14,047 bases of DNA from contig CAZYLT010000031.1 of assembly GCA_964648855.1 (NCBI GenBank), forward strand, positions 1-14,047. The letters run 5' to 3'. Below the pieces are notes generated by a model, which ran no database searches, was not told the DNA's origin, and saw only the letters and a program-made list of their open reading frames with translations. Origin of the DNA: an uncultured archaeon. GTDB lineage: Archaea; Asgardarchaeota; Thorarchaeia; Thorarchaeales; Thorarchaeaceae. Made by a program: the position numbers and the translations under genes. How positions within the stretch are numbered: the stretch's first letter is position 1; each line of letters begins with the position of its first letter. Shown here piece by piece: positions 259-14,047 of the stretch.

Positions 259-378
259 ATTGTTGATCCGATAGGTGCACAGATTGCTGGAATAGTCCTT
301 CAACATGATGAATCGATAGCGACAAGAAATCTAACGAATTTTGAGTTATTTAAGGGCTTGAGAGTTGAATCCTGCCGA
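259..378 (+). pseudogene. 3' remnant of a vapC gene paralogous to 8371..8763
   Basis: IVDPIGAQIAGIVLQHDESIATRNLTNFELFKGLRVESC vs IVDPIDAQIAGIALQHDESIVTRNLAHFELFKTLRVEPY. The conserved Asp is Gly, the stop TGA is CGA, and the N-terminal two thirds are missing. Confidence 0.85.
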
Positions 379-429
379 TTGCCAATGAACCAGAAGAATT
401 GTGGGACGAGAAAACCGGTGCAATCGTAG

Positions 430-480
430 AGGTTGCTCCAGAAAACGGAGTCTCCCTTTTGGTCACGCTGTTGAGTACCT
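430..480 (+). repeat. Module-boundary repeat, copy R1
   Basis: AGGTTGCTCCAGAAAACGGAGTCTCCCTTTTGGTCACGCTGTTGAGTACCT; aligns without gaps to R2. Confidence 0.92.
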
Positions 481-591
481 CTCCAATTTTACACAAGTTA
501 ATTCAAGAAGAGCAGACACTAGATCTTACCCGGTGATTTCTTCAGGGTATGAATGTCGCCTCTGTCGAATGGTCGTGGAAGTGGTGGCAAA

Positions 592-620
592 TTTATATGT
601 ACTCATATGTATACATATGA
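592..620 (+). promoter_or_regulatory. TATA box plus perfect 18-bp palindrome (probable antitoxin autorepression operator)
   Basis: TTTATAT at 592-598; TCATATGTATACATATGA at 603-620, just upstream of ATG 629. Confidence 0.7.
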
Positions 621-628
621 CGATACTC

Positions 629-871
629 ATGGCAAAAAACATAGCTCTTGCTGACGATGTCTATAGGTCCTTGAAACGCAGGAAGAGAGAGGGCGAGAGC
701 TTCAGCCAGCTGATTCGAAGACTCATGAAGAATTGCGGCGAAATAGCAGACCTCGCTGGTTCGGCAACACTCACTGTTGATGAATGGTTAGAGCTGAAAA
801 AGCTGAAGGAAGAGCAGGCTGAGAAGGACCGAGAACGAGCAAAAACCTTACTCTCCCAAGAAGAGGGGTGA
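629..871 (+). CDS. vapB: Antitoxin, archaeal VapB (DUF217-like) family
   Basis: MAKNIALADDVYRSLKRRKREGESFSQLIRRL signature; directly upstream of a PIN gene. Start reassigned to ATG 629, downstream of the TATA box. Confidence 0.88.
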   Translation: MAKNIALADDVYRSLKRRKREGESFSQLIRRLMKNCGEIADLAGSATLTVDEWLELKKLKEEQAEKDRERAKTLLSQEEG

Positions 872-879
872 AATAGTCA

Positions 880-1284
880 GTGCCTCTCTTTGATACCAAT
901 TACATCATTGATTTGACCAGAGGTGACGATGGTGCCGTATCCCTCGCAAAACAAGTGGACAGCGCCTCTGACATCAAAGCAGTATCAGTAGTTACGGTTC
1001 ACGAATACCTCAGGGGGATACTCTACCACCATTTAGACAAGGAAACGAAGGATGAGAAGATGCGCAAGGCCTTTGCAGACCTAGCTCACTTTGAGCAGAT
1101 GGATTTCACATCCGCAATCGCTCGAGAGGCAGCTCTTCTCGATGCTATCTTATACCGAGCTGGAGCCATGATTCCTTATGCCGATGTGATTATAGCCGCC
1201 ACAGCTTCTCATCACAACCTGCCCCTTGCTACTCGCGATTCTCATTTCTATTCTATAGAGGGACTCGATGTTATTCCGTATTAA
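880..1284 (+). CDS. vapC: VapC PIN-domain ribonuclease toxin
   Basis: FDTNYIID ... VTVHEY ... YADVIIAATA ... LATRDSHF: all PIN acidic motifs present. Confidence 0.93.
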   Translation: MPLFDTNYIIDLTRGDDGAVSLAKQVDSASDIKAVSVVTVHEYLRGILYHHLDKETKDEKMRKAFADLAHFEQMDFTSAIAREAALLDAILYRAGAMIPYADVIIAATASHHNLPLATRDSHFYSIEGLDVIPY

Positions 1285-1323
1285 CAAGAAGCGATGGATT
1301 TTGATGGATTCGTGCTGCAGCCT

Positions 1324-1374
1324 AGATTGCTCCAGAAAACGGAGTTTCCCTTACACCCACGCTATTGAGCTCCC
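1324..1374 (+). repeat. Module-boundary repeat, copy R2
   Basis: AGATTGCTCCAGAAAACGGAGTTTCCCTTACACCCACGCTATTGAGCTCCC. Confidence 0.92.
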
Positions 1375-1504
1375 TTTCATTTCTGGTTTGATCGGTACAT
1401 CTAAAGAGAGCAAGAATTTGTTCTTGTGACAAGAAACGAGTGCCCTTGTAGATAGAAACACGGTTAAAGGTTTATTCATGCCTCCTCATTGTGATACATT
1501 GGAT

Positions 1505-1798
1505 ATGCCTGTTGTGGCAGCCTGCATGGGGGCACTGCAAACCGAGAATATGAAACTCATTCTACCCTAGGTTCCCAAGAGTGCTGAAGATGAACTCGAA
1601 GAAGCATTCGCCATTACTTTTAATAGTAGATGGCATTCCACACACAACAAGAAGCAATTGATTTTCTTAATGATTCAGCATTTTCCTCTGGGAGATACTA
1701 CTGCTCCGAAAGCGACTGATCTGTGGAACAAGCCGGAAGAGGTGAACTCCTTCATCCATAAGAAGCGTTGCTACATTTCGAATTCTGACATTGTCTAG
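1505..1798 (+). pseudogene. Possible small gene (98 codons including final stop) interrupted by one in-frame TAG at 1568-1570
   Basis: ATG 1505 lies ~30 nt after a TTTATT box (1471-1476); the frame continues 75 codons past the TAG. No recognisable family. Confidence 0.3.
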
Positions 1799-1960
1799 AA
1801 CAAATAGATACAATCATCACGTTTGGATTGACTTATTATTCAAAGTCTATATTCGAACAAACGTTTTATTGGTAGACAGCCTTATTCTTCAGGAGAAGAA
1901 GCACTTCTTCTTGGAAACTTGGATATTTGAAGTAGCTTGTGAAGCGGCAGGGGATTACCT

Positions 1961-4453
1961 TTGAGCACCATGAAACTCCATCGACAAATTAGGAATTATC
2001 TCATTGGGCTATCTCTAATCCTAGTAATGTTTGGTGTAGTTTTGCAGGTAATCATCTTCAATTATGACATAAGTAATCAGATGGCTCAATCAGAATACGA
2101 GTCAGCACTTGAAGAATATGCAGAAAACAACATATACTATTCTCCTGGCGACGTTGTTCAGTATGTCCGAATTCGACAGAATCCATCAGGTTATTTTGTT
2201 CTAAACCCCGATTTAGTCTTCGAACCCTCGGAATACAATCTCAATACGCTAAAGGCTACACGGTTCTCTGTTATCACACTCAACACGCTGAACCAAACAA
2301 GTGCAATAAATGAAAATGCTACTGTTAACTATGTAATGAGTAACTATGAGAACTATTCAACTCCAGAAGGCACGTTCACCGGTTTCTCAAAATACGAAGG
2401 ATATAGCGCAGGTATTAGGAGTACATGTGACGCGTTAATGACGCTTGAAGCTCTTGATGCACTAGATACACCGACTCTTGACCTCAATTCAGTTGAGCAA
2501 TTCATTCTGCATCATCAGAATCTCGATGGGGGATTTTGGGATGACGACTACCCCCAGTATGGCACAAACTCCACACTTCTTGCCACTTCATTTGCTATGC
2601 GGTCCCTAGGAAGAATCTATCAGTTCCAAGGACGTGAATTCAATGAAACAATCAAGGAAATGATAGCAGAATTTGTCACTGATTGTTTTGATGAGTCTGA
2701 TGCAGGATATGCGAATGAGCCTGGAACCGACTCAACTGACTCTTATGGTGTCTTCAGAGCATTCATCTCATTATGGTGGCTTGAAGGGAGCGATGAAGCC
2801 TCAAGAAGAAGCTACATTGATCAGAATATGGATTTGGGGTCCACTGTTTCCTATTTGTCCAATAATTTATTTGATAATGAAACAGGAGCATTCTATCTGA
2901 ACGAAAATGATGGATTCGACCAGACGTCATTGAAAAGCACCCATCTCATGGTATGGTTTTTTACCGCTTTGAATCGGGATTGGATGCTCAATGTGACTGC
3001 CCTCGGTCATTATTTGATGAGTAGAGAGGTCACGCCAGGTCAATACGGTCCAGACATATATTCCACTTATGCCGCTGTCTTAACTTTTGTCCGTTTGGGG
3101 ATTTCAACAGAACCACTGCCTGTTCCAACACAACCGGCTCTGGTATCACTTGAATATCTTGGTGTTTTCCCATTCGTCATACTATCATTAGGAATCATCT
3201 CAATGACTTCGGCCTATTATTTTCAACATAATGCAATAAAAGCGGAACAATCACAAAGCGAATACCTTGAAAGAGAGGTGGAGAAGCGAACCAAAGAGTT
3301 GCAAATGGAGATTCGTAACCATGAGAAGACACGGGCTGACTTGGAAGAGAGTGAATGCCGCTATCGACGCCTGTTTGAGGACTCCCCGCTATCTCTCTGG
3401 GTAGAGGATTATTCCGGAGCCAAGAAAATATTGGACGACTTAGTAGACTCTGGAGTAACAGATCTCCGCACGCATCTAAGCAAGAACGAGGAGGTACTCT
3501 TACGCTGTGCAGATGCGGTTCAAATCTTAGATGTCAACCAAACAACGCTGACTCTTCATGGGCTCTCCAATAAGAATGAGATTATAGGTCCAGTGTCTCA
3601 AGTCCTGAATCGTGATTCGCTTCCTGTATTTCTCGATCAGATTTTGGCACTGCATTCTGGGCAATTATCATTCGAAAGCGAAATTGAGAATCTCCTCGTT
3701 TCAGGTACGGAAAAGGCACTGATATTAAAGCTCAGCGTACTGCCTGAAAATGAAGATACATTATCAAGGGTGCTTCTTACGATAATTGACATCACGGTGA
3801 GAAAGAGAGCTGAGGAACGTGTCGCAGCTTCGCTAGCAGAAAAGGAATTGCTTCTGAAGGAAATCCACCATCGGGTCAAGAACAATATGCAGATTATCTC
3901 TAGCCTGCTCCATCTTCAGTCTAGTAGGATTGTGGATACTGAAGCAGCCCTTGTACTCCGGGAGAGCGAGCACCGTGTAAAATCAATGGCCATGATTCAT
4001 GAAGCACTCTACCGCTCTGACGACTTGGCTAGGATTGATTTTGAGAAATATATCCACGATCTTACCCGGAACATACTTTTGTCTTTCGGGTCTAGCTTGA
4101 ATAACGTATCATTGAACGTGAATATCAAGGAGAAGTATCTCGATATCGCTATTGCTATTCCATGCGCATTGATAATTAATGAGTTGGTTTCAAACTCTGT
4201 TAAGCATGCCTTTCCTGATGATCGCCCAGGTGAAATCACAATTAGCTTTATAGCCGTTTCTGAAGACATTATGGAGCTATCCGTGAGTGATAATGGAATA
4301 GGGGTGCCCGATGACTTTGACCTGAAAGAAAGTGAAAGCCTAGGACTGAAACTGGTGACTCGCCTAGCGGAGAGGCAACTTAATGGCGCACTATCCTTGG
4401 AGTTGACTGATAAGACGAAATATATGATTCGATTCAAGAGGGGGGGCATCTGA
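1961..4453 (+). CDS. Membrane sensor histidine kinase: TM - prenyltransferase/squalene-cyclase-like repeats - TM - PAS - HisKA_2 - HATPase_c
   Basis: Hydrophobic N-terminal helix; repeats such as [14 protein letters not shown] and [18 protein letters not shown]; second TM ([16 protein letters not shown]); [12 protein letters not shown] entry; H-box [18 protein letters not shown]; [17 protein letters not shown] and SLGLKLV boxes. Alternative start ATG 1970. Confidence 0.92.
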
Positions 4454-4457
4454 AGGA

Positions 4458-6650
4458 ATGGCGGCATCTGCTCATATCATGATTGTGGAGGATGAGGCTA
4501 TAGTAGCTCTAGAAATGGAGGAACTATTGAAGAAATATGGATATGATGTTGTGGCTTCAGCACCTTCTGCTGAGAAGGGTTTGAAAGCGTTGTCACATCT
4601 CAAGCCTGACCTAGTATTGATGGACATCAGATTGAAAGGCGCTATGACTGGAATTGAAGCAGCAGAACATATCCTTAATAATTATTCAGTCCCAGTCATT
4701 TTCATTACAGCATATGCAGATGAAGAAACAGTAAAACAGGCTAGAGCCGCATCACCGTATGGCTATTTACTCAAACCACTCCGGACTGAAGAACTCCATG
4801 CATCAATCCAAGTTGCGTTGCACAAGTTCGAAGCTGACCAAGTAGTGATGACAAAAGGGGAGCACTTCAGACTTTTTTTCGAAAATCTTCCATTTTACTG
4901 TTACATGGTGACGATAGAAGGAAATATTCTAGATGTTAATGCTTTTGCATTGAACACCTTGGGCTATTCAAAAGAAGACTTGAGAGGAAAATCAATTGCC
5001 AGCATCTACACTGCTGATGATACAAGTAGAATAAGAGGGAGGCTACTCGGTTTACAGGATGGTTATACCATAGAAAATGAGGAAACCAATATCATTACAG
5101 CGGAAGGCAGGCAAAGAACGGTTCTTGAAAGCGTGGCTACAGTTCCAAGTGGCCAGCAAATCTTTGCCTTGGTCATTCAGAAGGATATTACCCAGCGAAA
5201 AATGGCGGAGGATAAGCTATGGAGGAGTGAAGAAAGATATGCCGAGCTCTTTCATCGAACAAAAGATGCCATTCTAATAAGGGATTTGGATGGCAACATG
5301 CTTGAAGTAAATCAAAGTGCTGTTGATTTATTCGGTTTCTCAAGGTCTGAATTCCTTCGTACAAAAATCACAAAAATAGCTGATGTAGAGCTTGTTCGAC
5401 ATGTTGAGAAGCGAATAGAAAAAGAAGGTTGGTGCAGAATTGAGGCACCTCTTACAAATAAGTCTGGGGAATCTTTCGATGCAAACATTACATCAAATCT
5501 AATCAAGCTTGGTGAAGAAAGAATTGTCCAAACAATTATAGAGGATATTACGGAACGCAAGCGGGCCGAAGAAACCCTGCGAAAGAGTGAGCAGAAATAC
5601 AGGAAACTGATTGAAAACTCAGTTCAGGGTGTCGCTATCTATCAAAACGATTCCATCGTGTATTCAAACAAATCATTTGCAGAAATCCTAGGTTACTCAG
5701 TCGATGAGATATTGGGCTTGAAAAGAGATGAAATAGAGGATATGATTCATCCTCATGATCAAGAACAGTTAATGAATCAAATCCAGAAGGTGTTGGAGTC
5801 CGATGGACCCCCTGTTTACTATGAGTATCGTGCTTTTCACAAGGATGGACCGCTACGATGGGTGGAATGCAGCTTATCACATATTGAACATAATGATGAA
5901 AAGGCAATTCAAATTGCTCAAATAGATAATACGAGTAGAAAGATGGCTGAGAATAAAGTAGAAGAGGAACGCGACCGAGCAGAGCTCTTTCTAGATTTGA
6001 TGGGCCATGATCTATCAAACATTCATCAAGCTGTTTATGGCCTCCTTGACCTTCTACTAAGTAGCGGAGAGCTATCTGAAAGCACTACTGGCCTTCTCAT
6101 GGAAGCTCTCGACCAAATGAATCGGTGTACTCGTCTTATCCGTAATGTAAAAAAAATACGGGGGATAGAAGAGCTTCCTTCGCAGCTCAAACCAATTAAT
6201 ATATCCTCGGCGATATCACAGGCAGTATCCGAAGTCCAAAGGGATATTCCGCATAAACAACTCAATATCAACATGGATAATAAATTGCGGGATGCATCAG
6301 TTATTGCTGATGAAGACCTTGCCACTGTTTTTTACGAACTACTTCATAATGCATTGACGTTTGATAGGGATCAGTGTGTCGAAGTTGATCTAACAATTGA
6401 TCAAGCCAATGGTGATGAGCTGGTCAGAATCCAATTGGCTGATAGAGGAAGTGGCATTTCTGACACGGAAAAAGAACGGTTGTTCATGAGAGAATCGGCC
6501 ACAAAGACCAAACATCGTAGAACTGGCCTTGGTTTGACTCTGGTGAAACACATAATTAGTAGGTATGCAGGCTCAATATACATAAAAGATAGAGTTGAGG
6601 GAACCTACAAAGAAGGCGCAGTGTTTGTTCTAGAGATTCCAAGAGCATAA
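4458..6650 (+). CDS. Hybrid signalling protein: receiver (REC) - 3x PAS - histidine kinase (HisKA/HATPase_c)
   Basis: IMIVEDE...DLVLMDIRL...FITAY...YLLKP receiver motifs; three PAS units ending DITQRK/DITERK/DNTSRK; LMGHDLSN H-box; ELLHNA, DRGSGI and TGLGL boxes. 4-nt gap after the upstream kinase suggests an operon. Confidence 0.93.
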   Translation: MAASAHIMIVEDEAIVALEMEELLKKYGYDVVASAPSAEKGLKALSHLKPDLVLMDIRLKGAMTGIEAAEHILNNYSVPVIFITAYADEETVKQARAASPYGYLLKPLRTEELHASIQVALHKFEADQVVMTKGEHFRLFFENLPFYCYMVTIEGNILDVNAFALNTLGYSKEDLRGKSIASIYTADDTSRIRGRLLGLQDGYTIENEETNIITAEGRQRTVLESVATVPSGQQIFALVIQKDITQRKMAEDKLWRSEERYAELFHRTKDAILIRDLDGNMLEVNQSAVDLFGFSRSEFLRTKITKIADVELVRHVEKRIEKEGWCRIEAPLTNKSGESFDANITSNLIKLGEERIVQTIIEDITERKRAEETLRKSEQKYRKLIENSVQGVAIYQNDSIVYSNKSFAEILGYSVDEILGLKRDEIEDMIHPHDQEQLMNQIQKVLESDGPPVYYEYRAFHKDGPLRWVECSLSHIEHNDEKAIQIAQIDNTSRKMAENKVEEERDRAELFLDLMGHDLSNIHQAVYGLLDLLLSSGELSESTTGLLMEALDQMNRCTRLIRNVKKIRGIEELPSQLKPINISSAISQAVSEVQRDIPHKQLNINMDNKLRDASVIADEDLATVFYELLHNALTFDRDQCVEVDLTIDQANGDELVRIQLADRGSGISDTEKERLFMRESATKTKHRRTGLGLTLVKHIISRYAGSIYIKDRVEGTYKEGAVFVLEIPRA

Positions 6651-6761
6651 CCCCTCGAACCGAAATAGCAAAATTATGTCCCACAGGATTAATGAAAAAT
6701 TTTGAAATCTCTCTGAGCAAAACAAGCGTTTTCCATATCATATTAAAAGGGTAGAAGCTTG

Positions 6762-6941
6762 CTATTCAATACCGATGCCCTTTATTTCTTCTGAAATTGT
6801 TGGGGCAGGTTTTTCTCCATCTGTCGTAAGTGAATTGGAAATGGGCTCAACTATGGTCCTGTTTTCCGCCCAAGTAACTAAGATATCCACGCCCACCTCA
6901 AGAAATGATGTTACGGTGTCAGGAGTAGAACGAGGGAGCAT
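6762..6941 (-). pseudogene. Decayed AbrB/MazE-type antitoxin paralogous to 13181..13435
   Basis: Translates TSFLEVGVDILVTWAENRTIVEPISNSLTTDGEKPAPTISEEIKGIGIE* vs TSGLEVGMDILITVEGDKIIIEPIPDPISLAIHGKKFASTNLEEIEEISHEQ. N-terminus is lost and there is a premature TAG. Confidence 0.75.
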
Positions 6942-6981
6942 GAGCGACCTGGCAAAATGGGCTCTTTAATCTGACAAGGTG

Positions 6982-7032
6982 ACCGTATTCTAGAGATGTC
7001 TATTCTCTTACAAGCCGTGTTGCTGAGCCCCC
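6982..7032 (+). repeat. Module-boundary repeat, degenerate copy R3
   Basis: ACCGTATTCTAGAGATGTCTATTCTCTTACAAGCCGTGTTGCTGAGCCCCC followed by TTTCGATTTTTCAT; closest to R5 (TCTAGAGA...TCTCTT...TGAGC.CC.T.TCGATTTTCAT). Confidence 0.6.
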
Positions 7033-7147
7033 TTTCGATTTTTCATTTTCATGCGTTTGAAAGAAGTAGATGCTAGATTTTGCTGAGTGATCCCCTTGAA
7101 GAAGAGTCTTTCTCCTCATGACTTCCGTCTGACAGAAATTATGCAGA

Positions 7148-7177
7148 TTTATATACTCATATGGTAACTAAGTAACT
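7148..7177 (+). promoter_or_regulatory. TATA box with ACTCAT motif and GTAACT direct repeat
   Basis: TTTATATACTCATATGGTAACTAAGTAACT immediately upstream of the antitoxin gene. Confidence 0.55.
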
Positions 7178-7179
7178 CG

Positions 7180-7467
7180 GTGTTGTCGGTGTCGACAGTG
7201 AAATTTGATTTGCAGGATGACCTGGAGGAGCTGCAGGCTCGGCTTTACCTTGACACTCGGAAACGGCTCAGCAAGAAAGAGGTCTTGGAACTGGTGTTCA
7301 GAATCGGCAAGGAAAACTACGACCTTATCGTGAGAGAAGTTCAGTCCGGAGAAGTCCCTCTGAGCGATGAAACGATTCGAGAGGTACTCTCTTTGGCCGA
7401 GGATTTAGGGCCGGGTAGCGAAGACCTATCATCAAGCGTGGACGACATTGTATATGGTGGAAGCTGA
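7180..7467 (+). CDS. Putative antitoxin (small protein with acidic C-terminus upstream of VapC)
   Basis: 95 aa; C-terminal EDLSSSVDDIVYG resembles VapB toxin-binding tails; 2-nt gap to the PIN gene. GTG 7189 is a possible alternative start. Confidence 0.8.
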   Translation: MLSVSTVKFDLQDDLEELQARLYLDTRKRLSKKEVLELVFRIGKENYDLIVREVQSGEVPLSDETIREVLSLAEDLGPGSEDLSSSVDDIVYGGS

Positions 7468-7469
7468 AG

Positions 7470-7892
7470 ATGGCGGTCCTTTTAGACAGTAATGTGATCA
7501 TTGCATTTCTCAACTCACGCGACAAGAATCATACCGCCGCCAAAGAATTACTTACAAAATTGAAGCATCCAGAATATGGTATGCGAGTCACAATTGATTA
7601 TGTGCTCGACGAAGTACTGACAGCTTTGTGGATGCATACCCGCCGTAAAGACGTAGTTAAAAAGGCACACCGATTCATTCGAAACACGCCCGAATTCATT
7701 CGATTCGATTATGTCAAATCTGATATCTTCGACTTGGCCTGGAGAAAATGGGAGAAGGTAGCCAGCTGGCCCAAGAAACCCTTGAGCTTCACTGACTCAT
7801 GCATCCTATCCTTCATGGAAAGGCACGATATTGAGTACTTGGCAAGTTTCGATTCAGACTTTGACGGACTCGTTTCTCTAGTGCTCAGTTGA
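7470..7892 (+). CDS. vapC: VapC PIN-domain toxin
   Basis: LLDSNVIIA...DKNH...YVLDEVLT...LSFTDSCILSFM...LASFDSDF. Confidence 0.93.
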   Translation: MAVLLDSNVIIAFLNSRDKNHTAAKELLTKLKHPEYGMRVTIDYVLDEVLTALWMHTRRKDVVKKAHRFIRNTPEFIRFDYVKSDIFDLAWRKWEKVASWPKKPLSFTDSCILSFMERHDIEYLASFDSDFDGLVSLVLS

Positions 7893-7971
7893 AAATAAGT
7901 CCCACTTTTTTCCGTTGTTCAAACTCAATCCACATTGGCACCATCGGGTTTGACGTAATGCAGTGCAACGT

Positions 7972-8021
7972 AGGTTATTCCGGAAACGGAGTTTTCCTTG
8001 CGCGCGCGCTGTTGAGCGCCC
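7972..8021 (+). repeat. Module-boundary repeat, copy R4
   Basis: AGGTTATTCCGGAAACGGAGTTTTCCTTGCGCGCGCGCTGTTGAGCGCCC. Confidence 0.88.
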
Positions 8022-8079
8022 TATCATTTTTCATATTTCAATGCAGAGAGAGCATAATAGATCTAATCGGGAGAGGGCT

Positions 8080-8099
8080 ATGAGTTTATATTTACTCAT
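8080..8099 (+). promoter_or_regulatory. TATA box flanked by inverted repeat ATGAGT/ACTCAT (probable operator)
   Basis: ATGAGT-TTATATTT-ACTCAT, ~30-45 nt upstream of ATG 8127. Confidence 0.65.
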
Positions 8100-8126
8100 G
8101 CACATACATACACAGAAGTGAGGATA

Positions 8127-8363
8127 ATGGGATACAAAACCATATCACTCTCGGTCGAGGCCTACAAGATTCTTAAGAATGCCAAGAGGGAAAACGAGAG
8201 CTTCAGCCAGGTTGTGATTAGGCTCGCAGGTAGACGCTCACTAGATGCCTTTGTTGGATGTATCTCCAAGGAATCAGTCGAGAAACTGTCAGATGCCATG
8301 AACACATTCCGAAAAGAACGTGGAGAAGTGTGGTCTCAGAGCATGAAAGAACTGACGGGATGA
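8127..8363 (+). CDS. vapB: Antitoxin, archaeal VapB (DUF217-like) family
   Basis: MGYKTISLSVEAYKILKNAKRENESFSQVVIRL; SD GTGAGG upstream; precedes a PIN gene. Confidence 0.9.
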   Translation: MGYKTISLSVEAYKILKNAKRENESFSQVVIRLAGRRSLDAFVGCISKESVEKLSDAMNTFRKERGEVWSQSMKELTG

Positions 8364-8370
8364 GGTCATT

Positions 8371-8763
8371 GTGATAGCTGACACATGTTTCATTATCGAC
8401 CTCATGCGAGAGAATGAGTCTGCGCTCAAGAAACTGGCACAGATTGAGAAGAACAATCGTCTACAGTACATAACTGTACCATCGGTCATGGAGCTGGCAG
8501 TCGGTGTAGCATTAGCGAGTCTACCCGCAAGAGAGCGTGAGAAAATCGATGAAATTCTTGGAGGCTTTGATATCGTTCCCTTTGATAGTTTATCCGCGTG
8601 GAAAGCAGGAATTGAAGTGGGTAGACTGAGAAGGGGTGGGCATATTGTTGACCCGATTGATGCACAGATTGCCGGAATTGCCCTTCAACATGACGAGTCT
8701 ATAGTGACACGAAATCTAGCGCATTTTGAGCTATTTAAGACCCTGAGAGTTGAACCCTACTGA
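8371..8763 (+). CDS. vapC: VapC PIN-domain toxin
   Basis: IADTCFIID...SVMELAVG...DPIDAQIAGIA...IVTRNLAHF. Confidence 0.93.
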   Translation: MIADTCFIIDLMRENESALKKLAQIEKNNRLQYITVPSVMELAVGVALASLPAREREKIDEILGGFDIVPFDSLSAWKAGIEVGRLRRGGHIVDPIDAQIAGIALQHDESIVTRNLAHFELFKTLRVEPY

Positions 8764-8814
8764 TTCCTTGCAATTAATCAGGGGAATTGCATGAAGAAAC
8801 AACCGGAGCAACAT

Positions 8815-8866
8815 AGGTTGCTCTAGAGAGCAGAGTTTCTCTTTACGCGCATGCTATTGAGCACCT
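8815..8866 (+). repeat. Module-boundary repeat, copy R5
   Basis: AGGTTGCTCTAGAGAGCAGAGTTTCTCTTTACGCGCATGCTATTGAGCACCT. Confidence 0.9.
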
Positions 8867-9065
8867 TCTCGATTTTCATCTACCTATTCAAAAGGAGTGA
8901 AAACTAGGACTTGTTCGATAGTTTGTTCAGCTCTTAGGGTCCGTCGTCAAAGTCTTCTGTAGCTGTTCATAATTCTTATACCATCTGCATGTCATGATGT
9001 GGTGACAGTCTTGCATTAGCGCCCGTATATACTCAGTCAACACATTTTCTGAACGATTGGCGGGC

Positions 9066-9299
9066 CTAGATACCAAGCAATTCCTCGATTTCTTCCTGTG
9101 TCGGCACTCGTCCGGAGATCTTAACATCACCATCTATAGCAACAGCGGGGGTCATTAGTACCCCTCTTTCCACAATCTCATCAATCTCATTGACCTCTAG
9201 GAGATCAGCGGCATAGTCATTTTCTCTCAGGGCCATCTCGATGTTTTTCTTAGTAGCTTTACATTTTGCACAACCAGTTCCAAATACTTCAATTTTCAT
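9066..9299 (-). CDS. Small redox-active disulfide protein (Thioredoxin_3 / MTH895-like), ars-associated
   Basis: MKIEVFGTGCAKCK CxxC motif; GVLMTPAVAIDG...SGRVP; GGAG SD upstream of ATG 9299. Confidence 0.92.
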   Translation of the reverse strand: MKIEVFGTGCAKCKATKKNIEMALRENDYAADLLEVNEIDEIVERGVLMTPAVAIDGDVKISGRVPTQEEIEELLGI

Positions 9300-9310
9300 T
9301 TCATCAACTC

Positions 9311-10390
9311 CTAAATCCACATTCCATAGAGGAGCCCAGCTGCAATACTGAAGGTGATTAGCAATAGACCGTAAGCTATGGTTCTTGCAGGCCTCATAAT
9401 CTTATTCACAACAAGTAAGGTCTGTAAAGATACAGCTGGATCTGCAATCAAATATGCCATGAGCGGTCCGGGGTGCATACCGAGCTGGAGAAACATATCG
9501 GCAATAGGAACCTCGACTAGAGTCGGGAAGTAGGCTATTGTTCCGAACAGAACGGCAAAAGTATTTCCAGCTAGACTATTCGTTCCGGCAAGAGCAACGA
9601 TTAATTCGGCTGGCACAAGGGGTCTAATCAAGCCAGATATGAGAACACCGACCAGAAGAATCGGAAATAGCATCTTGATGAATCGCCGAGTTTCAGTCAT
9701 CCAGTGACCCAGTTCCCCTCGGCTATAGAACATCAAAGCAATTATTGCTGTTATGATTGTACTGACCGAGACCAAAATGATTTTGCTAAGCAACTCAACG
9801 GGTGCAGTTCCAAAGACCATCACCATCGTCAGAGATGTGAAAAATGCTGCAGATTGATATGTGCTCCGTTCTTTTGTCTCTTCTGTTTTTGTTCCATCAG
9901 GTGTCATCAACTCAGATGATGATAGGTCCCGCTTCTCTTTGAATATAAGATCCATGGAGACCCCAATGGCAATGGCAATCACAATGGAGATGAGTAACTT
10001 GATGATGGCAAACTCTGGACCGATTACTGCGGCTGTGAGTGGCGTCGACAGCAAAGTGATTCCCGGACCAGCAAACAAGAATGTGATTGCGGGCCCAAAA
10101 CCCGCTCCCTTCTTCCAGATTCCTGCGAAAAGAGGGAGTATTGTACAGGAACATACCTCCAGAACAAGCCCACTTGTAGCAGCGAAGATATAAGCTACAG
10201 CTAGATGCATCCGATTCGTAGAGCTACCCAAGTACTTTGTGATTGTACTCTTTGGGATGAGAGCACTGAAAGCACCTGATATAAAGAATGCAGGTATGAG
10301 ACACAACAGAACATGCGCTGACAGGTAGTCCCAAAGGGTTTCGAGACCTGAAAGCAGGATGGTATAGAGAATGTGTTGCATCTGGGTCAA
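9311..10390 (-). CDS. arsP: ArsP / DUF318 family permease
   Basis: AHVLLCLIPAFFISGA, VCSCTILPLFAGIW, GPAITFLFAGP, YFPTLVEVP, GPLMAYLIADPAVSL motifs; multiple TM helices; typical neighbour of Thioredoxin_3 and ArsR. Confidence 0.88.
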   Translation of the reverse strand: MTQMQHILYTILLSGLETLWDYLSAHVLLCLIPAFFISGAFSALIPKSTITKYLGSSTNRMHLAVAYIFAATSGLVLEVCSCTILPLFAGIWKKGAGFGPAITFLFAGPGITLLSTPLTAAVIGPEFAIIKLLISIVIAIAIGVSMDLIFKEKRDLSSSELMTPDGTKTEETKERSTYQSAAFFTSLTMVMVFGTAPVELLSKIILVSVSTIITAIIALMFYSRGELGHWMTETRRFIKMLFPILLVGVLISGLIRPLVPAELIVALAGTNSLAGNTFAVLFGTIAYFPTLVEVPIADMFLQLGMHPGPLMAYLIADPAVSLQTLLVVNKIMRPARTIAYGLLLITFSIAAGLLYGMWI

Positions 10391-10405
10391 CTCAATGGAA
10401 TAATC

Positions 10406-10421
10406 ATCGAATAATCTCGAT
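10406..10421. promoter_or_regulatory. Candidate ArsR operator upstream of arsP
   Basis: ATCGA-ATAATC-TCGAT dyad; ATCGAATAAT recurs as its reverse complement at 12288-12297 upstream of acr3. Confidence 0.55.
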
Positions 10422-10774
10422 AAATAAATAATAAATATGTTGGTGGGTACATCACATCAGAAAGTGTAAGGCCTCTCAATTGGCTAGATAGAAGAGAAAT
10501 CATGCAAGAGATTTAGAGCGATAGTGCACTGTACGTGGACAGCTTGCCCTATGAGAGCAACCTTTGTGGGGTTACTCAGCAAGACGAGGTCAATGAAGAG
10601 TTAGGTCGTGTCTATGAAGCAAACGGTTAGACCTTCACTCAAATGATGCCATTTGAAATTGATACTCTGTTTGACGATGCTAGATAGGTTTTCGTTTTCT
10701 ATCTAATAATCGTCCAGCAAGATGGTATCACTTATACCATCAGTTGATTCCACGATGGTGCTTTGCCTGTCGTT

Positions 10775-11068
10775 TCATTTTACCATGTCAGGTGCAATTG
10801 CCCGTGTCTCATTGATGATATCTTTAATACGAGCGTCACTGATTTTGTATAGTTTTCTGGTTCCATCTTTTCGCTCTTCCAGTATTCCCGCCCTGACCAA
10901 CTGAGCCAGATACGCTGAAACTGTTGACTGAGCAAGGCCCATTTCGGGAAAGATTTCACACTGACATACCTCATTTTGAGCAATAATATCTAAAATCTCC
11001 AGTCTATTAGAATTGCTGAGTGCCTTGTGAAACTCTACTCTCCAATTCGTCACTTCATCAGTAGCCAT
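10775..11068 (-). CDS. arsR: ArsR/SmtB family metalloregulator
   Basis: HKALSNSNRLEIL...EVCQCEI...LAQSTVSAYLAQLVRAGIL...RKDG; ELCVCD-like metal-binding box. Confidence 0.93.
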   Translation of the reverse strand: MATDEVTNWRVEFHKALSNSNRLEILDIIAQNEVCQCEIFPEMGLAQSTVSAYLAQLVRAGILEERKDGTRKLYKISDARIKDIINETRAIAPDMVK

Positions 11069-11113
11069 TCATTATCCCATCTCTCCATAAGCTTGTGTAC
11101 CTATTCAAGATAT

Positions 11114-12220
11114 CTACTCACGAGGCTGCAAAGGCTCTCCTTTCCAGAACCGCTTCCTGCGCAAGTATCTGGCAAGATAGACCAATCCAAGCATGACTGG
11201 AACTTCCCAAAACAGACCCATTGTGGTACCTAGGGCTGCGATGGATCCAACACCATACATGGAGACTGCGGTTGCGATTGCTATCTCAAAGTGACTGGAA
11301 GAACCTATAATCACGCTGGTCACGCCCTCTTCATAGGCCAGACCCACTGTCCTCGTAATGAGAAGGTTGTAACCAACCACAATGGCAAAACCCAACAGTA
11401 AGGGTATTGACACCAAGACAAGCAGGTCGGGATTCTCAAGCATTACCTTTCCATTCAGTGAGAAGAGCACGATCAAGGTCACAAGTAGGGCAATCAAACC
11501 GACCTTGCCTACTGCTGGCCTGTATCTATCATGGAACCACTCAGCTCCTTTCCGATCAATAAGAATTTTCTTGCTAGCCACTCCGAGTAACAGGGGGGCT
11601 CCAATGAAGACAACAACAGAGATGACCAACAACCACTGGTCTATGGCGATAGATGAAATTCCTGTGAACAGAGCGACAACGGGGGCATAGAGCACCATAA
11701 TTGACACCGTATTAAGACTTGTATTGATAATATTCTGTTCTTGATTGCCCTTAGCAAGATAACCCCAGACCAATACCATGGCTGTGCAAGGGCTTGATGA
11801 AAGCAAGATGATTGCTACTATCAATTGCGGATTGCCACCAAGAAAGAGGTTCGCGAGTGCTACTCCAACCGAAGGAGCCACAACCCAATTTGAAAACAAC
11901 GTCAAAATGATTGGCTTTGGGTTTCTCCCTAGGTTCTTCAGTTCCTCGCCTTCAATATTAAGCATAGAAGGATACATCATCAAGAAGAGACTGATTCCTA
12001 TAGGAATCGAGATTCCTGCAACTTGTAGCTGGTCAATAGCCACGCTGACTCCAGGTACTGTCAAGGCCAACACAATGCCAATGGCCATACAGATGGCTAC
12101 CCAGAGGGGCAGGTATCTCTCGAAGAGACCTAATCCGACTTGCTCTCTGATATCTTCCTCACTTACTGATTCAGCTTCGACATACGCTGGCTCTGCAGGA
12201 TTTTCTTCGCTCATTTCCAT
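11114..12220 (-). CDS. acr3: ACR3 family arsenite efflux transporter
   Basis: FERYLPLWVAICM, MMYPSM, SPCTAMVLVWGYLAKGN, GSSSHFEIAIATA, EVPVML Acr3 signatures. Confidence 0.95.
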   Translation of the reverse strand: MEMSEENPAEPAYVEAESVSEEDIREQVGLGLFERYLPLWVAICMAIGIVLALTVPGVSVAIDQLQVAGISIPIGISLFLMMYPSMLNIEGEELKNLGRNPKPIILTLFSNWVVAPSVGVALANLFLGGNPQLIVAIILLSSSPCTAMVLVWGYLAKGNQEQNIINTSLNTVSIMVLYAPVVALFTGISSIAIDQWLLVISVVVFIGAPLLLGVASKKILIDRKGAEWFHDRYRPAVGKVGLIALLVTLIVLFSLNGKVMLENPDLLVLVSIPLLLGFAIVVGYNLLITRTVGLAYEEGVTSVIIGSSSHFEIAIATAVSMYGVGSIAALGTTMGLFWEVPVMLGLVYLARYLRRKRFWKGEPLQPRE

Positions 12221-12265
12221 GTAACCTCTTTGTCACCTTTATCGTGTCAATGTACACTACAATCA

Positions 12266-12297
12266 ATCGAATATTCTAATTATTTATATTATTCGAT
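12266..12297. promoter_or_regulatory. Candidate ArsR operator overlapping AT-rich promoter of acr3
   Basis: Inverted repeat ATCGAATA (12266-12273) ... TATTCGAT (12290-12297) around an AT-rich core. Confidence 0.55.
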
Positions 12298-12406
12298 ACA
12301 ACGTGCGACTACTACTGCAGTCCAAACTATATTCTGCTTATCAGTGCACAGTTGGAGGGGAACCCCAACTAAAATGACTTGATAGGAGCTCTTGACACTG
12401 CAAAAT

Positions 12407-12457
12407 AGGTTGCTACAGAAACGGAGTCTCCCTTTACGGTCATGCTGTTGAGCACCC
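12407..12457 (+). repeat. Module-boundary repeat, copy R6
   Basis: AGGTTGCTACAGAAACGGAGTCTCCCTTTACGGTCATGCTGTTGAGCACCC. Confidence 0.92.
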
Positions 12458-12559
12458 ACTCTGCTTTGAGTGCTGATCCTTGGATTTCCAGAAAATACAT
12501 ATGAAAATGGTTAGAATCAAATATTGAATGAATATTCAAACGTCAGGAAGGGCAGTAGG

Positions 12560-12742
12560 ATGACGCACCGAATAAGAATCTCCCAAGAGGCATATGACCT
12601 GCTTGAAAGTGAAAAGCGCCCTGATGAATCATTCAGTGATGTTCTTCGCCGACTAATAGGGCGGTATGAAAAACGGGAGTTTGCAAAAAGAGAAAAGTCT
12701 ATTTTCAAGAATGAGGAATTCAAGTCTTTCGACAAAGAGTAG
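12560..12742 (+). CDS. vapB: Orphan VapB (DUF217-like) antitoxin, short
   Basis: MTHRIRISQEAYDLLESEKRPDESFSDVLRRL has the same signature as 629..871 and 8127..8363; no toxin follows on the same strand. Confidence 0.75.
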   Translation: MTHRIRISQEAYDLLESEKRPDESFSDVLRRLIGRYEKREFAKREKSIFKNEEFKSFDKE

Positions 12743-12765
12743 TCGGCTATGGATACCAGCCTTAA

Positions 12766-13218
12766 CTAAAGCTCCTTCGGGAATAACAGAACATCTTCAA
12801 TCTCATTTTTGGCAACGAACTTGGAGAATTCAGTATCAATGGTTAGGAATTGTTGCTGGTTTCTAAGAGCTGTTGCATAGAGTAGGTTGTCAATCATATC
12901 TGAATGCCCCATTTGGAAGAAATCAAGAGCTATCATATAATCATCGGGGCCTGTTGAGACCGCATTATAGTGACCGGTCTTCGTAATACTCAGAAGCCCT
13001 CTTCTGAAGAGGGTCTTTTGATAGGTGTCTTGTTTGATTTGCTGTATCGCGACCCAGCTACTCTCAAGCAGACTCCAGTGAGAGTAGAAGAGCTGAACCT
13101 CCTCATGATTCAGCCTTGGAATGACCTCCATCACTTCATGTTCGACCTCGACTCCAAGAGTTGGAAGCAGGAACGATGTATCAAGAAGAATTCTCTGTAC
13201 GCTCTGATTGTTGTTCAT
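12766..13218 (-). CDS. vapC: VapC PIN-domain toxin
   Basis: ILLDTSFLLP...SLLE...GHSDMIDNLLYATA...FLTIDTEF; overlaps the 3' end of its antitoxin. Confidence 0.9.
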   Translation of the reverse strand: MNNNQSVQRILLDTSFLLPTLGVEVEHEVMEVIPRLNHEEVQLFYSHWSLLESSWVAIQQIKQDTYQKTLFRRGLLSITKTGHYNAVSTGPDDYMIALDFFQMGHSDMIDNLLYATALRNQQQFLTIDTEFSKFVAKNEIEDVLLFPKEL

Positions 13219-13435
13219 GGCTGATTTCCTCTATTTCTTCTAAATTCGTTGATGCAAACTTCTTCCCATGAATGGCAAGTGAAATAGGATCGGGAATTGG
13301 TTCAATGATGATCTTATCTCCTTCCACCGTGATCAATATATCCATCCCCACCTCAAGTCCGGATGTTTCAACCACTGCCTTTGGAAGGTAGATTGTATGT
13401 TTCTTTCCGATTCTACTCTCAGTTGTCAGAACCAT
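13181..13435 (-). CDS. AbrB/MazE/SpoVT-type antitoxin
   Basis: SRIGKKHTIYLPKAVVETSGLEVGMDILITVEGDKIIIEP swapped-hairpin signature; AGGTGA SD favours ATG 13435 (alternative 13441); TTTATAT box at 13496-13490 on the minus strand. Confidence 0.9.
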   Translation of the reverse strand: MVLTTESRIGKKHTIYLPKAVVETSGLEVGMDILITVEGDKIIIEPIPDPISLAIHGKKFASTNLEEIEEISHEQQSERTENSS

Positions 13436-13559
13436 AGTCATTCACCTGACTTTCAACCATTTTCCTGACAAATTACTTAATTTCAGGGCATATAAAGTCA
13501 TAGAATCCATATAGGCCCCAATTAACAGGCACATGAGCGTGTTAATGCGCGAACGAATA

Positions 13560-13609
13560 ATGGTTTCCAAAACGGAATGTCCCCTTAGGGTCACGCTGTT
13601 GATCATTCC
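13560..13609 (+). repeat. Module-boundary repeat, divergent copy R7
   Basis: ATGGTTTCCAAAACGGAATGTCCCCTTAGGGTCACGCTGTTGATCATTCC; shares AAAACGGA and GGTCACGCTGTTGA with R1. Confidence 0.8.
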
Positions 13610-13741
13610 TCTTTTTGGGTCAGTAGTGAGAAATGAATACATCCAACTGTCAGTTCTTCAGATATCCGCTCATCCTTTCCAACCAAGATATTTGGTCATT
13701 TGGAGCGCCGGGTGAATTCTTGATAAAACGTTTCTGACAGA

Positions 13742-14047
13742 TTGAGTGACCTCACCGTGTCTGAAACTTCTGTGTTCCACCCTTCCCCTGCCAGCGTCAC
13801 CGCCTCCAGCATGCCCGAAGGCTGCTGAGTCAGCAGGGGCTTTGTCCATGTTCATCGGGATGGGATCCCTCCCATGGTCCTGATCTCTTCCTCCTGTGTA
13901 TGTCCTGAGGCATCACACTCAGCCACAGGGAGGCTTTCCACAGTTCTTACCACGGCGGGTTCATGATCACCCATGCTAGCTTCGTCACCGAAGTCAGCAA
14001 GGCTCGCCTGAGCATGGTGAACAGCCGCGGACTCTCCGGGGGCTGAT
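13742..14047 (-). mobile_element. Probable right end of an IS200/IS605-like (TnpB-type) element with structured RNA, truncated by the window edge
   Basis: Abrupt rise in GC content; many hairpins; minus strand ends ...GGTGAGGTCAC-TCAA (TCAC/TCAA are typical right-end tetranucleotides). No transposase or RuvC motif is visible in the window. Confidence 0.45.
13852..14046 (-). CDS. C-terminal tail of a gene entering from beyond the window (possibly TnpB-like)
   Basis: Open frame SAPGESAAVHHAQASLADFGDEASMGDHEPAVVRTVESLPVAECDASGHTQEEEIRTMGGIPSR*, with no diagnostic motif. Confidence 0.45.
   Translation of the reverse strand, partial: SAPGESAAVHHAQASLADFGDEASMGDHEPAVVRTVESLPVAECDASGHTQEEEIRTMGGIPSR

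Follow-up and report, generated by a model that had tools for sequence, protein, structure and literature searches.

Modules and repeats in the window

The window, i.e. the whole stretch of 14,047 nucleotides analyzed here, consists of gene modules interspersed with seven related repeats (Table 1). As described in the original prediction, these repeats all lie on the + strand, none of the seven falls within an ORF, and the modules contain VapB/PIN pairs, two histidine kinases, and an AbrB-PIN pair. Module 5, which had been described as a complete ars cluster, carries the genes listed in Table 1, but no ORF for arsC, arsA, or arsD was found in it. The putative antitoxin of module 3 matches no Pfam or NCBIfam family. 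At the start of the window, positions 6-261 share 84% identity with the last part of a vapBC module from the array of a related genome (G001), and positions 259-489 match positions 8644-8876 at 76%. Towards the other end, module 6 and the distal module in the array of G001 share 95% identity, and copy 7 has a counterpart in the same place in G001, followed there by a surE-like ORF. The gene-less element derivative that closes the window, present in ~20 copies in the genome, is missing from the corresponding place in G001. A target-site duplication was looked for at this mini-element, and none was recognizable with confidence.

Table 1. Features of the window
Feature	Position	Strand	Basis or remark
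PIN/vapC-like gene 3' end of an upstream module, cut by contig start	3..245	+	Similarity to G001
Truncated vapC tail, duplicate of module 4 end plus its downstream repeat	259..400	+	Internal match
16S-trailer copy 1, core 469	419..527	+	Repeat model; weak remnant of element ORF end after core
Module 1: VapB antitoxin 629-871, PIN toxin 880-1284	629..1284	+	Pfam
16S-trailer copy 2, core 1363	1309..1424	+	Repeat model
Module 2: two PAS/histidine-kinase genes, 830 and 730 aa	1961..6650	+	Pfam
16S-trailer copy 3, degenerate, core 7021	6969..7081	+	63% to the genome's own 16S trailer
Module 3: putative antitoxin 7180-7467, PIN toxin 7470-7892	7180..7892	+	
16S-trailer copy 4, core 8010	7960..8064	+	Repeat model
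Module 4: VapB and PIN toxin	8118..8763	+	Pfam
16S-trailer copy 5, core 8855	8803..8912	+	Repeat model; marginal element-end remnant
Module 5: thioredoxin-like protein 9066-9320, ArsP-type permease 9311-10390, arsR 10775-11068, acr3 11114-12220	9066..12220	-	
16S-trailer copy 6, core 12446	12393..12486	+	82% to the genome's own 16S trailer
Module 6: VapB-like 12524-12742 (+), PIN toxin 12766-13218 (-), AbrB/MazE 13181-13441 (-)	12524..13441		
16S-trailer copy 7, degenerate, distal array end, core 13597	13542..13635	+	Repeat model
End of gene-less Cas1-like/TnpB element derivative: TnpB C-terminal remnant and RNA scaffold, no trailer copy	13718..14047	-	

Two properties originally ascribed to the repeats did not hold. 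They had been described as ~50 bp long, whereas the homologous unit spans ~100-120 nt, and as palindromic, whereas 14 single-strand folds gave z scores of -2.4 to +1.0, with one below -1.7, and no common hairpin. The repeat matches no Rfam family. A repeat model trained without rows from this genome (G000) or G001, on a set first gathered by a G000-seeded model, matched five window copies at E<0.01 and gave weak matches for the copies at 12446 (E 0.09) and 7021 (E 0.52); it missed the degenerate copy at 13597 and found nothing in the reversed genome. The 3.1-Mb genome contains 12 trailer copies in total, which are confined to three contigs and co-oriented on each. The scattered copies in both orientations that would have spoken against the original prediction were not seen. 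Repeat decay shows no monotonic polarity along the array.

The repeats and the 16S rRNA trailer

Each repeat is a copy of the 3' trailer of 16S rRNA, comprising the 3' arm of the leader-trailer stem and a T-rich tract, and some copies also include the last ~40 nt of 16S. The core of the repeat forms base pairs with the 5' leader of 16S, and the two co-vary from genome to genome. Compensatory leader-trailer changes were found for three stem variants and an indel; one of these variants was predicted beforehand and then seen on checking G003, G101, and G089. Conservation of the core is explained by this pairing. A by-eye search of the stem for a canonical bulge-helix-bulge found none. As judged from sequence and predicted pairing, the repeats are displaced non-coding copies of the 16S rRNA 3' trailer.

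Trailer copies are present in 64 of the 86 genomes of the family (Thorarchaeaceae). They are co-oriented in every locus, and wherever 16S is assembled the arrays begin 75-200 nt behind it. In this assembly the window has no physical join to the 16S contig, and we infer that it represents the distal portion of a gene array growing behind the single, unlinked 16S rRNA gene. Its toxin-antitoxin modules reappear in relatives' arrays in different orders. Module 1 has homologues within the arrays of six other genomes and module 3 within seven other arrays, both in unchanged orientation, the latter next to different neighbors; module 4 recurs in G012, G095, G009, and L103, and module 5 in or near other arrays in opposite orientation. 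For module 2, no homologue at ≥50% was found among the arrays fetched from relatives.

Modules move between genomes together with their downstream trailer copy. As the original prediction anticipated, genome comparison revealed modules gained, lost, and reordered, with homology breakpoints within or beside the repeat. The copies vary in length and crossovers occur at several positions; hybrid foreign/host copies switch at different conserved blocks. In one genome (G055), a host-specific core variant is common to the 16S copy and ~ten array copies. Cargo reaches 15 kb, with genes on both strands, and includes a HerA-like repair cluster.

A Cas1-fold and TnpB element behind 16S

In relatives, a 16S-specific clade of elements encoding a Cas1-fold protein and TnpB lies directly behind the first trailer. 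The seven closest homologues of the Cas1-like protein are all encoded just behind 16S, and sequences matching the end of its ORF lie in antisense 35-106 nt after ~20 cores, internal ones included. Elements of another clade adjoin mvhD, another stacked gene. The window contains no intact element and no 16S fragment, and its ORF-end remnants are marginal (score 38 behind copy 1, against a shuffled maximum of 34). Elsewhere in the same genome, on contig C19, a Cas1-like protein is encoded beside TnpB, the latter recognized by family match. The C19 protein aligns to the Cas1 fold with Z 13.1 and rmsd 3.3 (185 aligned); the top 12 structural matches are all Cas1 or casposase (Z 9.6-13.1) and the next is at 5.9. 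The Pfam Cas1 profile does not detect the element's Cas1-like protein, and PF01867 finds in this genome two ordinary Cas1 genes on other contigs and nothing else. For the 1716-aa protein, sequence searches gave no identification and Foldseek matches to Cas1 were weak; the one clear result came from VIA-align. The element might also have come along as a passenger, with host recombination building the arrays.

TnpB retains the RuvC-I Asp, the RuvC-III Asp, and a conserved alternative Glu, a pattern that has been read as probably active (PMC10691335). Downstream of tnpB are a conserved motif and a variable guide region, with guide-like segments directed at the 16S 3' domain. These show 11-26-nt matches to four 16S sites, all preceded by GRAT. 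The guide for one site, T3, was found in 8 of 86 genomes and in none of the reversed controls; most array-bearing genomes have no visible element. In element carriers, the guided sites are mostly interrupted by introns: an interrupted T3 was seen in 11 of the 12 element-adjacent 16S genes that could be read versus 7 of 22 others, kin being non-independent, and the genome of the window has none of the four sites intact. G022 and G003 are exceptions, combining a T3 guide with an intact T3 site.

The 16S fragments in the arrays of ~25 genomes end at one position, 9 nt from the T3 GRAT motif, and never extend upstream of this guided site. Longer 16S fragments may be lost by assemblers. This boundary was seen in ~nine unrelated junction contexts; nine of the sharpest junctions represent one ancestral module. 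A bulge-helix-bulge-like mini-intron has its 3' splice junction at this same place, and the copies retain a second mini-intron. TnpBs studied so far cut 15-21 nt from their motif, the boundary here being nearer. Most copies begin at variable positions further 3', and intact elements are followed by trailer copies without a full 16S fragment.

Origin of the array and related systems

The repeats are most likely scars of a mobile element whose RNA-guided nuclease would attack rival 16S genes. We consider it probable, from these comparative data, that the array arose by RNA-guided replacement of the 16S 3' end, followed by decay and by recombination between copies. TnpB would cut 16S alleles lacking the protective mini-introns, and the recipient would acquire, by copying during repair, the donor's 16S end together with its trailer, the element, and cargo. 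Its own former 3' end would be reattached further downstream, either through end-joining, perhaps with help from the Cas1-like protein, or through recombination with a donor trailer, and so become a repeat. The element would later decay, small modules would be held in place by toxin-antitoxin pairs, and trailer copies would recombine homologously with one another, deleting, swapping, and reordering modules.

Alternatively, TnpB may mainly mark the site, and the Cas1-like protein may insert the element, complete with a 16S end of its own, at a set spacing from the motif, as in CAST or casposon systems. The sharp boundary, the Cas1/casposase fold, and the proposal that aCas1 is a transposase (PMC10691335) are in keeping with such integration, as are the dispersed gene-less derivatives, whose ~20 copies imply that the family transposes, and the fact that 5 of ~9 independent junctions share the same two preceding bases, although none matches at the third. 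We regard it as unlikely, because no conserved element end was found ahead of the displaced 16S fragments, most copies start variably and further 3', trailer copies without a full fragment follow intact elements, and the tendency of carriers to lose their own targets is what one would expect of a cutting nuclease. We hold in similarly low regard the idea that host recombination alone suffices, with other Thorarchaeota DNA recombining at the conserved 16S end and trailer, excised circles re-entering at any copy, and Cas1-TnpB as one selfish passenger. This would explain the hybrid repeats, the variable crossovers, the arrays without any element, and the ordinary chromosomal cargo, but it leaves unaccounted for the hard boundary at a guided, intron-marked site, the element-end remnants that follow many internal cores at a constant spacing, and the elements of another clade beside mvhD. 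It is scarcely credible that the repeat goes back to reverse transcription of a pre-rRNA fragment released by the splicing endonuclease: the left boundary does lie at a splice junction, but no reverse transcriptase was found in the genome, the second mini-intron is kept, and the cargo is long, with genes on both strands.

The original prediction took the repeats for dedicated recombination sites, served by an integron-like or Xer-like recombinase, here acting in trans. The polarity, the richness in toxin-antitoxin pairs, the repeat traveling at the module 3' end, and breakpoints near a GTT-containing core fit such sites. attC sites have RYYYAAC...GTTRRRY ends on a folding single-strand hairpin, and pdif sites are 28 bp long, with two inverted 11-bp arms recombined by XerC/D or XerA. 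In the window, GTTRRRY occurs in three of seven copies and RYYYAAC upstream of one, and neither a matching R'' nor a hairpin was found; the attC/attI candidate, prompted by the GTT triplet, was ruled out by these folding and motif tests. Xer/pdif was rejected on the length of the unit, its lack of dyad symmetry, and the absence of PF00589 genes. Indeed, the lack of a recombinase noted for the window extends to the whole genome (94.6% complete), where PF00589, PF02371, PF00239, PF00078, and PF01797 gave no match, i.e. no tyrosine, serine, IS110, Y1, or RT gene was found, and the recombinase expected at array ends was not found beside relatives' arrays either. Of the 86 family genomes, 57 lack PF00589, and no repeat lies near any of 20 tyrosine recombinase loci in relatives. 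Neither the core nor the 16S end was found in viral contigs, and a metagenome scan returned mostly true 16S genes. Because core conservation is accounted for by leader pairing, and the repeats are 16S trailer copies of variable length with scattered crossovers, dedicated sites appear very improbable. What stands of the proposed cassette system is a polarized accretion array.

End replacement at 16S has parallels. In the tandem accretion of ICEs, IMEs, and CIMEs at gene 3' ends (PMC5704250), elements likewise stack downstream of a conserved gene, whose end is restored by each of them, and decay to integrase-less units with direct repeats that copy the target's 3' end in an array starting from the intact gene (for the window, we infer this link to 16S). 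Here, by contrast, the target is the 16S end plus trailer, the repeats are ~100-200 nt and variable, no tyrosine or serine integrase was found, the junctions have no fixed att core, and a putative RNA-guided nuclease points to the site. Cas1H-Asgard-1 and -2, the aCas1-associated TnpB loci, share a Cas1-fold gene head-to-head with tnpB, a TCACTC-type motif, and a hypervariable region downstream (PMC10691335, citing Makarova et al. 2020). What sets the present elements apart is the multi-guide array matching 16S, the tie of the clade to this locus, and the resulting cargo array.

Homing includes 'collaborative homing' with ORF-less introns. In free-standing endonuclease homing (PMC2790892) and in TnpB restorative homing (PMC13565253), a nuclease encoded next to its target instead of within it attacks alleles in which it is missing and spreads together with the adjoining DNA, target introns protecting the carrier; the sequence pattern here suggests a similar mode. 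The present nuclease is predicted to be RNA-programmed, with several targets per gene and guides to a host gene instead of an empty transposon site, and would leave the former gene end behind as a repeat. HeimM2 of Ca. Heimdallarchaeum is also an Asgard mobile element with a homing-type nuclease directly beside a single 16S gene; the part of that report drawn on (PMC8813620) presents a protein-guided homing endonuclease and a single element, and describes no trailer-delimited array. Integrons and CALINs, archaeal ones included (PMC9668308), are alike in outcome, with polarity, genome-typical repeats, toxin-antitoxin and restriction cargo, and reordering. The arrays here have no IntI and no attC fold, and their modules (0.2-15 kb) have their own promoters and genes on both strands; a missing IntI alone does not exclude a CALIN, because CALINs lack IntI by definition.

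We found no paper on such an array or on a 16S-targeting aCas1-TnpB, subscription journals being thinly covered. More tentatively, Thorarchaeota could well possess a programmable gene-capture platform in which the Cas1-fold protein and multi-guide TnpB target the 16S decoding region and 3' end, replace the gene end, and stack cargo between displaced tails, amid a mini-intron arms race including guides retargeted to rival introns, with sister clades acting likewise at genes for tRNAs and proteins. For the Asgard aCas1-TnpB loci, PMC10691335 had left guides and targets open; the present matches supply concrete candidate targets and a four-base motif. RNA-guided end replacement would amount to integrase-free gene collection, an integron-like outcome without an integron integrase, in which toxin-antitoxin, restriction, and metal-resistance genes share a hotspot that extends across the lineage. 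It offers a possible reason for ORF-less mini-introns in rRNA genes and accounts for contig breaks at the 16S gene. It also predicts that 16S 3' ends are exchanged between lineages, which would matter for rRNA-based phylogeny.

Repeats and gene modules of the window

As the original prediction had it, the window contains seven related repeats on the same (+) strand, all of them between genes. The accompanying description of ~50-bp palindromes does not apply: folding z-scores are unremarkable, no hairpin is common to the copies, and the repeat unit is ~100-120 nt long. With a repeat model trained without this genus, five of the window's copies scored E<0.01 and two more were recovered weakly; the reversed genome gave 0 matches. 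Across the home genome (G000) there are 12 copies, confined to three contigs and all facing the same way on any one contig. The contents of the intervening modules agree with the earlier listing, except that the ars cluster cannot be called complete. It consists of acr3, arsR, an ArsP-type permease and a thioredoxin-like gene, with no reductase gene.

Repeat cores and additional features of the window
Feature	Position (nt)	Strand	Observation
Seven repeat cores	469, 1363, 7021, 8010, 8855, 12446, 13597	+	related sequences, intergenic
Partial duplication	259-489 and 8644-8876		76% identity; truncated duplicate of module-4 vapC tail and its downstream repeat
Segment upstream of kinase module	1705-1834		intergenic; 78% identical to G000:C4:66049-66177
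Gene-less derivative	13718-14047	-	end of ~550-nt derivative of Cas1-like/TnpB element

Relationship of the repeat to the 16S rRNA trailer

C19, another contig of the home genome, has only one repeat copy, ~106 nt past its 16S gene. In every relative with an assembled 16S and a recognisable core, the first copy is directly behind 16S. A segment of the 16S 5' leader, reverse-complemented, gives the core sequence; folded together, leader and trailer form a long stem. The leader/trailer pair is AAC/GTT in most genomes, AGC/GCT in G003, G101, G089 and G044, and GAC/GTC in G094; there is a compensated indel in the stem of G101, and one extra pair in those of G055, G058 and G067. Because the core pairs and co-varies with the 16S leader, we identify the repeat as the trailer side (3' arm) of the pre-16S stem together with a T-rich tract, the latter probably the terminator. 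G013 (L144), which has a leader of the usual type, shows no core in its 16S trailer within 230 nt and no repeat match in its genome.

The repeat model matches 64 of the 86 genomes of the family, with a median spacing of 1.3 kb and, in every locus examined, one strand for all copies. Most array copies are of the host's own trailer type, and a core variant of G055 is found in ~10 of its copies. Window modules 1, 3, 4 and 6 (toxin-antitoxin modules) recur in arrays of other genera in the same orientation, with different neighbours, and homologues of the ars genes recur elsewhere in inverted orientation. In close module homologues, identity sets in at points from 38 nt upstream to 9 nt downstream of a core; its end is often 13-27 nt past the start of the next. 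A nucleotidyltransferase module brings a G000-type trailer into two genomes whose remaining copies are of a different type, and the repeat therefore travels at the 3' end of the module. The last window module and its repeat share 95% identity with the distal end of the array in the relative G001; the inner modules differ. On contig C29 of the home genome (L001:8627-15310), a HerA-like gene is found as cargo between two trailer copies, beside an McrBC pair; by eye, its neighbours resemble NurA, Mre11 and Rad50.

The Cas1-like/TnpB element and its guides

Behind 16S in the home genome are a 1716-aa ORF and TnpB. Residues 1-240 of the 1716-aa protein have the fold of the Cas1 catalytic domain, and the best 12 structural matches are all Cas1 or casposase. 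Its seven closest homologues all lie directly behind 16S, antisense. Most of the closest ORFs end 50-110 nt past the first core; in the home genome, two genes lie between this core and the ORF. Remnants of the ORF end occur at that same position behind ~20 cores, internal ones included (one is on C29), and the window has marginal traces at copies 1 and 5 only. In TnpB, Gly occupies the usual RuvC-II position and an alternative Glu is conserved, a pattern that has been read as a rearranged, probably active site (PMC10691335). Both proteins match those of the aCas1-TnpB loci published in that study. The home genome has ~20 dispersed copies of the gene-less derivative, frequently at contig ends; G001 lacks it at the place where the window has it. 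In G045 (L132:4693-12628) and G009 (L133:5073-12826), Cas1-like/TnpB elements of another clade adjoin mvhD-like fragments.

Downstream of tnpB, there are one to four guide-like segments whose matches, perfect over as many as 26 nt, fall at four sites of the 16S 3' domain; in the target, a GRAT motif precedes each of these sites. Guides on C19 and in G050 instead resemble the intron-bearing alleles found in other genomes. One site, T3, is interrupted in 11 of the 12 readable element-adjacent 16S genes versus 7 of the 22 others, G003 and G022 being exceptions to this pattern; no guided site is intact in the home genome. On its contig C52 (L118), a guide array of at least six segments, two matched to 16S, follows a tnpB end. 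On C28 (L115), a Cas1-like/TnpB copy adjoins what appears by eye to be a tRNA-like gene, and a guide-like segment downstream of tnpB (~9860-10150) resembles, also by eye, the reverse complement of a tRNA T-loop. At L002:3717-3822 (-), a tRNA gene is interrupted close to the T-arm by ~34 additional nt, a non-canonical position for an insertion.

Many repeat copies in relatives start within the 16S gene. None of the 16S fragments in the arrays of ~25 genomes extends upstream of one single position, which we take to be ~1498-1500 in E. coli numbering. Approximately nine unrelated contexts join there or ≤2 bases away, counting once a context common to nine genomes. This boundary is also the site of a 30-nt bulge-helix-bulge-like insertion in 16S of G000 and other genomes, and lies within one guide target, 9 nt from GRAT. 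The window's own copies begin inside the trailer, further 3' than these fragments. In the 16S gene on C19, hairpin insertions of ~30 nt are found at guided sites or close to them (C19 ~32000-32270; L002 ~10000-10270), two within the gene's last 80 nt, which shorten the Rfam match. In G094 (L123:852-1532), a LAGLIDADG-like motif occurs in a 226-aa ORF located in or at the 16S gene; the ORF probably specifies an intron-encoded homing endonuclease. For Asgard archaea, a mobile element that places a homing nuclease next to 16S has been described (PMC8813620).

Assembly of the arrays

The arrays resemble integrons and pdif modules in outcome, but failed the tests for membership. Family searches of the home genome found no tyrosine, serine, IS110, Y1 or RT proteins; PF00589 is absent from most array-bearing relatives, and 20 PF00589 loci have no repeats. 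That the repeats are attC/dif-type sites is very unlikely, and that they are retro-copies is more improbable still. Foreign and hybrid trailer copies are also present, with the foreign-to-host switch at different conserved blocks, and these varying switch points bear the mark of homologous recombination. That host recombination alone builds the arrays seems unlikely. It is similarly doubtful that the Cas1-like protein performs guided integration.

The most likely reading, in our view reasonably probable, is that the arrays arise through cleavage of 16S by TnpB and repair, a scheme of which we infer all enzymatic steps. The layout of the arrays agrees with the tandem accretion known from the 3' ends of genes (PMC5704250), and a literature search found no paper that unites this layout, the aCas1-TnpB proteins and a nuclease-bearing element beside 16S in a guided, integrase-free array at 16S. 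TnpB would cut unprotected 16S alleles and repair would bring in cargo and element along with the donor's 16S gene end, leaving the recipient's old gene end stranded as a repeat. We infer the link between the window and 16S from repeat identity, contigs ending inside repeats and synteny with G001. Element decay, toxin-antitoxin retention and recombination between copies would then shape arrays like the window, which is a late, element-free stretch of array.
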